The notes below the pieces were generated by a model, which saw only the letters and a program-made list of their open reading frames with translations, was not told the DNA's origin and searched no databases. Below are positions 30,723-31,982 of a stretch of DNA of 64,000 bases, in pieces. The DNA lies in contig JBJEGD010000002.1 of the NCBI GenBank assembly GCA_051874735.1, forward strand, positions 1 to 64,000, in the 5' to 3' direction. How positions within the stretch are numbered: position 1 is the first letter of the stretch; the number at the start of each line of letters is the position of its first letter. This DNA is from Candidatus Bruticola sp. (GTDB taxonomy: Bacteria > Vulcanimicrobiota > Xenobia > Xenobiales > Xenobiaceae). The position numbers were made by a program, and so were the translations under genes.

Positions 30723-31982
30723 TTACTGCTTTTTAAATGTCAACAGCTTATCCCTATAATATTCGTATTGCTTTTTTCGGGCTTCAATTTCTGCCGGAAG
30801 TCCTTCCGAAATGTCATTGCACAACTGGTGGAAGTTGTCAAGCATATCGGCTATCTGTTTCTGTTTATCAAGGGACGGCAACGGAATTACAATTTCCTTT
30901 AATGCAGGAATGCTTGAATGGACAACCTTACTCTTAACTTTGCCCTTGCTTTTCTGTGCCTGTGCTGCTGTTGTGGACAGCACATAAGACAGATAGCGCG
31001 GTTCTTGCTTGTGCTTCAAGACTACCGTATCGCCTCCAGCCATACACTTTTCATGTCCCAGATAGGCGATTGATTTTGCGATTTCCTCGACGCTTTCGCC
31101 TGTGATAGTGAAAATTATATCGCCGTGTTCAAAATACTTAGGCTTGGCAACAACATCCTCAGTTGTGTGGGAAACGCACTCAGTAAAGCTAATATCATAC
31201 ATGGTGTAGATTTCTCCATAGCGAACGCAAGGAATACCATCGGCGGTTACCTCGTCTCGCTTGATACCTGCACCACGATAAATGTCAGTCGCAATATTTC
31301 CCAAAGCGACATAAGCGACACCAAAAACATATTGACAAAGCAAAATCAAGCCATTAAGCTCGTCTGTCTGTCTGTCTGTCTGTCTGTCTGTCTGTCTGTC
31401 TGTCAAGATTATCTTGCCAGTTGCAGCATAATTCAAGAGGGCATCACGGTAATACTCATACTGTTTCTTTCTCGCTGTAAGCTCCGCTGTAAGCTCCGCT
31501 GTAAGCTCCGTGAAATTGTCCAATATACGGACAATTTCACGCTGTACCTCAATAGGCGGAACAGGGATTTCTAAAGATGCAACCGTGGATTTAGCAAGAG
31601 CAGGAATGCCAGCCCCATACTGACACTCTTGCAATTTATATTCTTTCGACTTCACAAAATGGAACAAATAGCGATTCAAGACCTTGCTTGTTGGTTTAAG
31701 TACATAACAATGTGCTCCTGCCCAAAACTTTGTATCAAGCCAATTAACATATCCGGCAGATGCACCACCTTGAGAAATCGTAATCGTGTTTTGCTCTTGA
31801 TTGTACTGCTCAATATAGCCCGATGGGTTTATACCTCCGTTAATAACAGGGTATGCCCCTTCATTATGCATATCTTTCTTGTTGAACTGAACGCCTTTAG
31901 AAATCAAGCATACAGCTTCCAAGTCAACATATGCAACGCCATTCGGGCAGTATTCTTGAATTAACTCATCAAGTCTACTCAT
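30723..31982 (-). CDS. hsdS: type I restriction-modification specificity subunit
   Basis: Two TRDs separated by duplicated conserved regions (PP..Q..I...LDNF...[13 protein letters not shown]); ATGA overlap with hsdM. Confidence 0.95.
31362..31404 (-). repeat. simple sequence repeat (GACA)10GAC inside hsdS
   Basis: 43 bp of perfect GTCT repeat on the plus strand; translates as [14 protein letters not shown]. Confidence 0.97.
31473..31510 (-). repeat. 12-bp tandem repeat x3 encoding the TAEL spacer in hsdS
   Basis: CGCTGTAAGCTC x3 on the plus strand; protein [12 protein letters not shown]. Confidence 0.95.

Follow-up and report, generated by a model that had tools for sequence, protein, structure and literature searches.

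The window analysed here is the stretch of 64,000 nucleotides at positions 1 to 64,000 of contig JBJEGD010000002.1 (Candidatus Bruticola sp., GCA_051874735.1). It carries a restriction-modification (R-M) operon with the gene order HTH-hsdM-hsdS-hsdR, all on the minus strand, in which the stop codon of hsdM overlaps the start codon of hsdS (ATGA). Features of the locus are listed in Table 1. Among solved structures, the best relatives of HsdM and HsdS are EcoR124II M (7bst_D, 629 bits) and EcoR124II S (7bst_A, E value 4.5e-30), respectively, while HsdR matches EcoR124 HsdR (2w00/4bec) with 862 bits, has a Pfam EcoR124_C match and retains intact nuclease (D151..ELK), TGSGKT (325) and DECH (431) motifs. 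As all three subunits are closest to those of EcoR124 and a TAEL repeat is present in the first conserved helix of HsdS, the system is assigned to type IC, with an operon that is intact as judged by its motifs. The HTH open reading frame (ORF) is apparently without its N-terminal part and is possibly an operon regulator or a remnant. The locus has no tRNA nearby and shows no clear change in GC content; therefore, a genomic island is not claimed. An acidic 297-aa ORF with no Pfam match lies at 35729 to 36622 of the window. Several further type I R-M genes are found on contigs C7, C8, C9, C21 and C39 of the same genome (G000); on C39, a frame of 929 aa resembling HsdM continues into its hsdS.

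Table 1. Features of the type IC operon and of its hsdS gene (positions in the window)
Feature	Position	Strand	Basis or remark
Cro/C1-type HTH ORF, 54 aa	33540..33704	-	Overlaps hsdM start; profile positions 21-63 only
hsdM, 524 aa	31979..33553	-	Motifs PACGSG (233) and NPPY (309) intact
hsdS, 419 aa, type IC specificity subunit	30723..31982	-	In frame at n = 10
TRD1, about residues 15-140	31563..31940	-	Pfam, structure model
First conserved helix, residues 144-188	31419..31553	-	Model; alignment to EcoR124II S; predicted whole in truncated product
TAEL repeat, 12-bp unit, 3.2 perfect copies	31473..31510	-	Putative in-frame spacer-length dial
KQYEYYRD block and pre-tract linker	31405..31466	-	Linker comparison, tree
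Predicted slippage tract, (GACA)10GAC	31362..31404	-	nt 579-621 of hsdS; encodes (TDRQ)3TD, residues 194-207
Stops of both shifted frames	31346..31356	-	TAA 31354-31356, TGA 31346-31348
Post-tract helix (QYVFG)	31320..31361	-	Typical of three-TRD genes; family comparison, model
TRD2, about residues 223-368	30879..31316	-	Pfam, model; made only when in frame
Terminal conserved helix	30738..30872	-	Alignment to EcoR124II S, model
hsdR, 1027 aa, EcoR124-like	27618..30701	-	Start 21 nt after hsdS stop

The hsdS product contains two Methylase_S stretches by Pfam, and its first and last helices are alike, both ending in the same 11-residue motif. A fold from the single sequence reached a pLDDT of 33.7. 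A further structure model was built from an alignment of 101 sequences, mostly three-TRD proteins. In this full-length model both halves are well folded (mean pLDDT 82.8, pTM 0.56), and the elements follow one another as TRD1, helix 144-188, the tract loop, helix 202-220, TRD2 and the terminal helix, with low confidence at residues 195 to 201 of the tract loop. Compared with the closed arrangement of solved HsdS, the model gave a TM of about 0.34 and an rmsd of about 25; as the alignment consisted mostly of three-TRD proteins, nothing was drawn from this mismatch.

Located 3' of TRD1 and the first conserved helix and 5' of TRD2 is (GACA)10GAC, a perfect period-4 run of 43 bp, or 10.75 units. 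Within the 2,469,224-base assembly this tract is the sole perfect repeat with a unit of 4 to 9 bases and at least four copies; the second-longest period-4 run measures 15 bp, and such a tract has an expectation of approximately 1e-17 by chance. Its unit is not a multiple of three, it has at least three units and it lies between two TRDs, the properties used in PMC7383803 to recognize simple sequence repeat (SSR) tracts in hsdS. Computation of the reading frames revealed that hsdS reads through at n = 4, 7, 10, 13 and 16 GACA units and that other unit numbers lead to a stop within six codons of the tract. Gain of one unit gives CGA GCT TAA and loss of one unit gives ACG AGC TTA ATG GCT TGA, with the n = 9 and n = 11 alleles each encoding a product of 210 aa. 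These computations confirm the first-pass annotation of this DNA, which had described a perfect 43-bp tract in frame at ten units, stops within six codons in both shifted frames and a TRD1-only protein of approximately 210 aa, and had placed the tract after TRD1 with a complete conserved region and before TRD2. The range it assigned (31340 to 31404) is wider than the tract and includes both shifted-frame stops. The helix ends at residue 188 and the tract starts at residue 194; from the order of elements in the model, with helix 144-188 ahead of the tract loop, truncation is predicted to retain TRD1 and the whole helix.

The first-pass annotation had suggested counting GACA units in raw reads. 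Matches were obtained in 24 read runs (best share 0.21), from which no habitat is claimed. Four runs were compared with the locus, and neither a read nor a contig spanned the tract; in three of them 0, 13 and 7 raw reads were placed, none over the tract, which was skipped in read placement. Evidence on slippage therefore comes from relatives. A pattern scan of GTDB contigs identified at least 119 GACA-tract hsdS loci; short tracts are absent from this set because the pattern requires at least 4.75 units. Such genes are common in public genomes, mostly from Bacillota according to record titles. Among the 119 matches listed, 36 tracts reach the end of the DNA, 7 were dropped because they were followed by fewer than 60 bases or by Ns, and 76 are closed. 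These 76 closed tracts range from 5.25 to 123.5 units with a median of 13, and their frames are distributed 28:24:24 (chi-square P = 0.81 against equal shares), two thirds being out of frame. Very long tracts of 123.5 and 58.75 units occur at loci L060 and L058. Using a motif test, the TRD 3' of the tract was found to be intact in 34 of the 35 out-of-frame loci with long flanks among the matches listed, the sole miss (L053) ending in a variant of the motif, and in 13 of the 14 in-frame loci. As the following TRD is intact in nearly every case, the out-of-frame state is not one of decay.

Unit number also differs between near-identical genes of the two-TRD class, to which the window's gene is similar. 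L046 (17.25 units, in frame, four TAEL units) and L152 (10.25 units, out of frame, three TAEL units) are 98.1% identical, with 18 mismatches and 40 gap bases over 3092 columns, while L050 and L158 carry 14 and 32 units and have no mismatch. A further 11 loci were found in metagenomes, some of them near-duplicates; in the 10 with downstream DNA, 3 are in frame and 7 out of frame. At the protein level, the TAEL helix is joined to a TDRQ tail in 42 of the best 120 short homologues, and 33 of the 120 are complete half-size proteins with this tail, a few possibly cut by a contig end. In one 90% cluster of 10 members, 8 share the same sequence throughout the 130 residues leading up to the helix end, and all three frames are represented among them. 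A second 90% cluster of 12 members comprises 3 full-length and 9 half-size proteins; of two more that were checked, one has a single member and the other has no full-length member. Judged on these relatives, with their near-even frames and identical proteins in three frames, the tract is very probably phase variable by slippage, as had been proposed. That it is instead a leftover, serving as a stable and flexible in-frame linker with no useful rate of variation here, could be argued from the read placement described above and from the degenerate, locked tracts (TDKQTD and TDKKTD) of some relatives. This is extremely improbable for a tract that is perfect over 43 bp and whose closed homologues among the matches listed are out of frame in two thirds of cases, and measurable phase variation has been reported from at least three tetranucleotide units upwards (cited in PMC7383803).

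The GACA-tract family is mainly composed of three-TRD genes, as judged by sequence. Among the matches listed, 105 of 119 tracts follow a distal LPAEI-type region, 10 follow a TAEL region and 4 are unclassified, and in 63 of the 69 distal-class loci with a bounded frame there are 351 to 418 aa upstream of the tract, corresponding to two TRDs. Consistent with this, 113 of the best 120 long homologues are at least 530 aa in length. The repeat unit at the tract site, scored in 119 long homologues, is TDRQ-type in 64, SRAEQ in 33 and NRTEQ-type in 4, with none in the remaining 18. The QYVFG helix 3' of the tract, a linker class feature defined in this analysis, is present in 63 of 67 closed distal-class loci and in none of five TAEL-class loci among the matches listed; by eye, it was also absent from all 10 metagenome TAEL-class loci. 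Seven loci from viral collections (L170 to L176) all belong to the distal class and may be cargo of prophages or other elements. In a search of plasmids only the conserved helix was matched, over at most 31% of the query. An assembly break occurs at the tract in 25 of 80 loci with fetched flanks among the matches listed.

In 69 of 76 loci among the matches listed, each of the two shifted frames reaches a stop no more than 21 nt from the tract, compared with 20% of 619 control positions, and these double stops are built from many different codon pairs. Of 70 distinct post-tract blocks, 57 carried them, compared with 19.8 expected when codons are recoded synonymously, and deeper windows in the TRD had no excess (151 of 1094 against 160.8 expected). 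The conserved block 5' of the tract was also enriched in double stops (39 of 69 against 18.8), which indicates that the recoding test is inflated by shared ancestry. The double off-frame stops were consequently set aside as proof of selection and are regarded as suggestive only.

The window's gene does not have the layout of the extended three-TRD hsdS, in which two TRDs lie 5' of the tract and one 3', as only 174 aa precede YEYYRD and no YRD block occurs further upstream. It has a TAEL region 5' of the tract, yet carries the distal-class linker and QYVFG helix. The best similarity of its linker is up to 0.89 to loci of the three-TRD class and at most 0.61 to those of the two-TRD class; the linker of P0002, a three-TRD protein of 572 aa, is nearly that of the window. 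In a tree of the tract flanks (116 columns, with a bootstrap that is not fully settled) the window falls within the distal clade (99/98), with L034 as its sister (99/88), and the one TAEL-labelled row inside this clade, L133, has a distal-type region. In run X18, a distal-type block lies 5' of the same linker as in the window (hand reading, IEARQKQYAFYRD), and a separate X18 contig matches 30740 to 31350, covering the window's TRD2, with 28 differences in 611 positions (95%). The DNA of TRD1 has 0.987 to 1.0 identity in 150-nt bins to the same-genus genome G008 (locus L141, G008:C6:1-3000, compared with window positions 31473 to 31952), whereas bins upstream over hsdM have 0.74 to 0.87, which suggests a recent exchange of the TRD1 domain.

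From the linker comparison and the tree, the window's gene is probably a three-TRD 'extended' allele minus its middle TRD, a derivation that the first-pass annotation missed. We infer that a crossover in the KQYEY codons, at about 31450 to 31470, removed or bypassed the middle TRD, and such a loss would turn a 2-versus-3-TRD switch into a half-versus-full switch. Hybrids of this kind appear to be rare in the sets searched. The collected proteins include 39 linkers of the window's subtype, and just one other comes after a TAEL helix. It belongs to P0143, an independent hybrid that differs in its TRD1 and has two TAEL units and an out-of-frame tract. The junction was absent from the five closed two-TRD GTDB loci among the matches listed, from 10 metagenome loci and from the best 120 long homologues, the strict junction pattern had no match in metagenome contigs, and the exact HsdS protein of the window was not found in the protein collection searched. 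In 4 of the 120 long homologues the middle TRD has been lost by a different deletion. In these proteins (P0021, P0052, P0072 and P0084) both conserved helices are 54 residues apart and the tract is degenerate and locked in frame.

If the junction had arisen in assembly, as a chimera or by collapse, the gene would in reality have three TRDs and a 2-versus-3 switch as in Mannheimia and Fusobacterium. The assembly is in 42 contigs, the large majority of relatives are of the distal class, the X18 linker follows a distal-type block, and the contigs of G008 and G003 break at these repeats, all of which would be in keeping with such an artifact. However, the two blocks share only about 15 to 25 similar bases, which is short for an assembly collapse, and no leftover middle TRD was found anywhere in the genome. 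P0143 and the four homologues in which a different deletion took out the middle TRD likewise argue for a real junction, and an artifact is considered improbable.

The conserved block was identified in 6 of 19 genomes of the window's family. G003 has a three-TRD hsdS whose tract is (CCGA)10 rather than GACA and is out of frame (L142, G003:C45:3000-6342), G015 has two TRDs followed by the tract at a contig end, and in G008 the hsdS contigs are broken at both repeats. G012 has two TRDs and no tract, while G007 has a single-TRD hsdS directly 5' of hsdR, with hsdM split over two frames (L143, G007:C17:58500-65000). At L143 hsdM and hsdS are separated by an inserted gene in two frames, and upstream there is a repeated stretch resembling, by eye, two tRNA genes. 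Because its hsdM is split, the single-TRD gene of G007 weakly supports the activity of half proteins. Three layouts of this operon thus exist within the window's genus (G003, G000 and G007). It is conceivable, though doubtful, that the linker, tract and last TRD form a portable module and that recombination in KQYEYYRD moves the locus among a layout with three TRDs (2-versus-3), one with two TRDs (half-versus-full) and one with a fixed single TRD, so that the kind of switch would itself be variable. Such a module would bring its own off-frame stops in both shifted frames just 3' of the tract, and its helix, imitating an N terminus, would dock the last TRD separately, perhaps as a re-initiated half with a third specificity.

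For the gene as found in the window, knowledge of the family suggests that the in-frame product, with TRD1 and TRD2, would recognize an asymmetric site. Out of frame, a half protein of 202 to 218 aa would be made, consisting of TRD1, the whole TAEL helix and a short TDRQ tail. This protein would pair with itself via the helix and, together with HsdM and HsdR, methylate and restrict at a palindrome of the TRD1 half-site. A mechanism by which TAEL unit number acts as a spacer-length dial is given in PMC3874165, and three TAEL units should preserve a distance of 8 nt between the methylated adenines, as is the case for EcoDXXI and for its truncation. In a drifting population, the asymmetric specificity would be carried by approximately one third of cells and the palindromic specificity by the other two thirds. 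The putative activity of the half protein as a palindrome-reading dimer follows by analogy from EcoR124I, EcoDXXI and NgoAV. These precedents, cited in the first-pass annotation, are correct according to section 26 of PMC3874165, in which all three type IC truncations covered are active. Half-size HsdS of NgoAV is described in PMC6789123 and in bioRxiv 10.64898/2026.01.10.698759, in parts of which HsdS200/2LEAT allows less plasmid uptake than an inactive form, meaning that the NgoAV half form still restricts.

Results from other half proteins and from the linker itself could instead suggest an ON/OFF switch, with a half protein that forms no active dimer. According to the same bioRxiv report NgoAV HsdS200 without LEAT repeats is inactive, and TRD1 of H. 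pylori JHP1422 alone did not methylate a palindrome, as described in part of PMC3936762. Furthermore, the window's linker has its origin in three-TRD genes. These encode a normal two-TRD protein when out of frame, and the linker was therefore not selected for self-pairing of a half protein. An OFF state might also arise by polarity, as about 650 nt of hsdS 3' of the shifted stops would go untranslated, which could cut hsdR expression, and the genome encodes Rho. However, hsdR does not overlap hsdS and has its own purine-rich AAGGA 6 nt ahead of its ATG. A scan for an internal hsdR promoter returned 13 sites against 13.0 expected, with no excess, and a terminator scan returned 7 against 5.9 expected. 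Given that the helix and three TAEL units are predicted to be kept in the truncation, and that the type IC truncations and the HsdS200/2LEAT form described above retain activity, an ON/OFF switch is judged unlikely. A specificity switch, favored over ON/OFF in the first-pass annotation, is the most likely reading for a type IC system that keeps this helix with its three TAEL units, although its dimer component is inferred.

The shifted frames could also permit a three-way switch, in which restart at a TTG makes a separate TRD2 half and allows TRD1/TRD1, TRD1/TRD2 and TRD2/TRD2 dimers. An in-frame TTG (31347 to 31349) overlaps the TGA of the n-1 frame (TTGA, 31346 to 31349), the post-tract helix resembles by eye the N-terminal helix of HsdS, and the C-terminal half of EcoDXXI functions alone and complements the N-terminal half (section 26 of PMC3874165). 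Nevertheless, an in-frame ATG, GTG or TTG occurs there in only 8 of 76 homologues among the matches listed, on which basis re-initiation was rejected as a conserved trait of the family, and the sequence does not show an evident strong ribosome-binding site. A three-way switch is thus very improbable.

The specificity switch between half and full HsdS remains the preferred reading. The hsdS of this type IC operon would be a contingency locus that varies by slipped-strand mispairing, of hybrid origin through recombination in the shared KQYEYYRD block that joined TRD1 and the TAEL helix to a linker-tract-last-TRD module. Its likeliest putative benefit would be as a hedge against phage or plasmid DNA bearing one methylation pattern. 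The probability of this reading as a whole is estimated at about two in three.

The switch mechanism is already published, for NgoAV and in PMC7383803 (Atack et al., 2020), and the window's gene is a further case; the present analysis adds a survey of the family and a probable hybrid origin. The portions of PMC7383803 covered report SSR tracts in 7.8% of REBASE hsdS genes, including GCAA tracts in H. parasuis and P. aeruginosa, and draw both full-versus-half and 2-versus-3-TRD models. Supplementary file 2 contains ten entries with rotations of GACA (GACA, ACAG, CAGA or AGAC) of at least six units, at both positions, two of which, S.SscSp3 and S1.DpiD1, seem from name and size to be L079 and P0261, respectively. 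The string 'gaca' does not occur in the main text covered, and the group is listed without discussion. The part of PMC11741434 covered contains nothing on these tracts, and in the literature searched, which included few subscription journals, no paper was devoted to the GACA family or to loss of the middle TRD, the only record being the listing in PMC7383803. A. pleuropneumoniae offers no parallel in hsdS, because the GCACA tracts of this species lie within type III mod genes. Assembly breaks at the tract mean that GACA hsdS genes are easily filed as fragments or pseudogenes. These genes offer many natural test cases for a question left open in PMC7383803, as far as covered, namely the way in which the middle TRD of a three-TRD protein is replaced by the last one, and the window's allele would serve as a natural deletion for this purpose.

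A close parallel to the window's system is NgoAV, in which the tract likewise lies just 3' of TRD1 and the helix and yields an HsdS of approximately 400 or 200 aa, a second in-frame repeat (TAEL in the window, LEAT in NgoAV) sets the spacer, and hsdM, hsdS and hsdR are together. Switching of M.NgoAV alters the expression of other genes, which makes it a phasevarion (abstract of PMC9577141). The window differs in having a tetranucleotide rather than a poly-G tract and a long linker with an extra helix, and it is known from sequence alone. The SSR hsdS genes of PMC7383803 share the tetranucleotide tract between TRDs and the predicted full and truncated HsdS, but a hybrid origin is not described in the portions covered. 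In the extended hsdS of M. haemolytica and F. nucleatum (section 3.4 of PMC7383803), the tract lies after a conserved region and before the last TRD, a layout shared by most GACA relatives and from which the window's linker derives. In contrast, the window has one TRD before the tract, predicting a half-size product and not a complete two-TRD protein. Finally, EcoR124I HsdS(delta50) and EcoDXXI deltaC and deltaN (PMC3874165) are also type IC and indicate that TRD1 with the first helix suffices for a palindromic homodimer, and the window has three TAEL units, as do EcoR124II and EcoDXXI. Those truncations are fixed mutants, whereas that of the window would be reversible by slippage.
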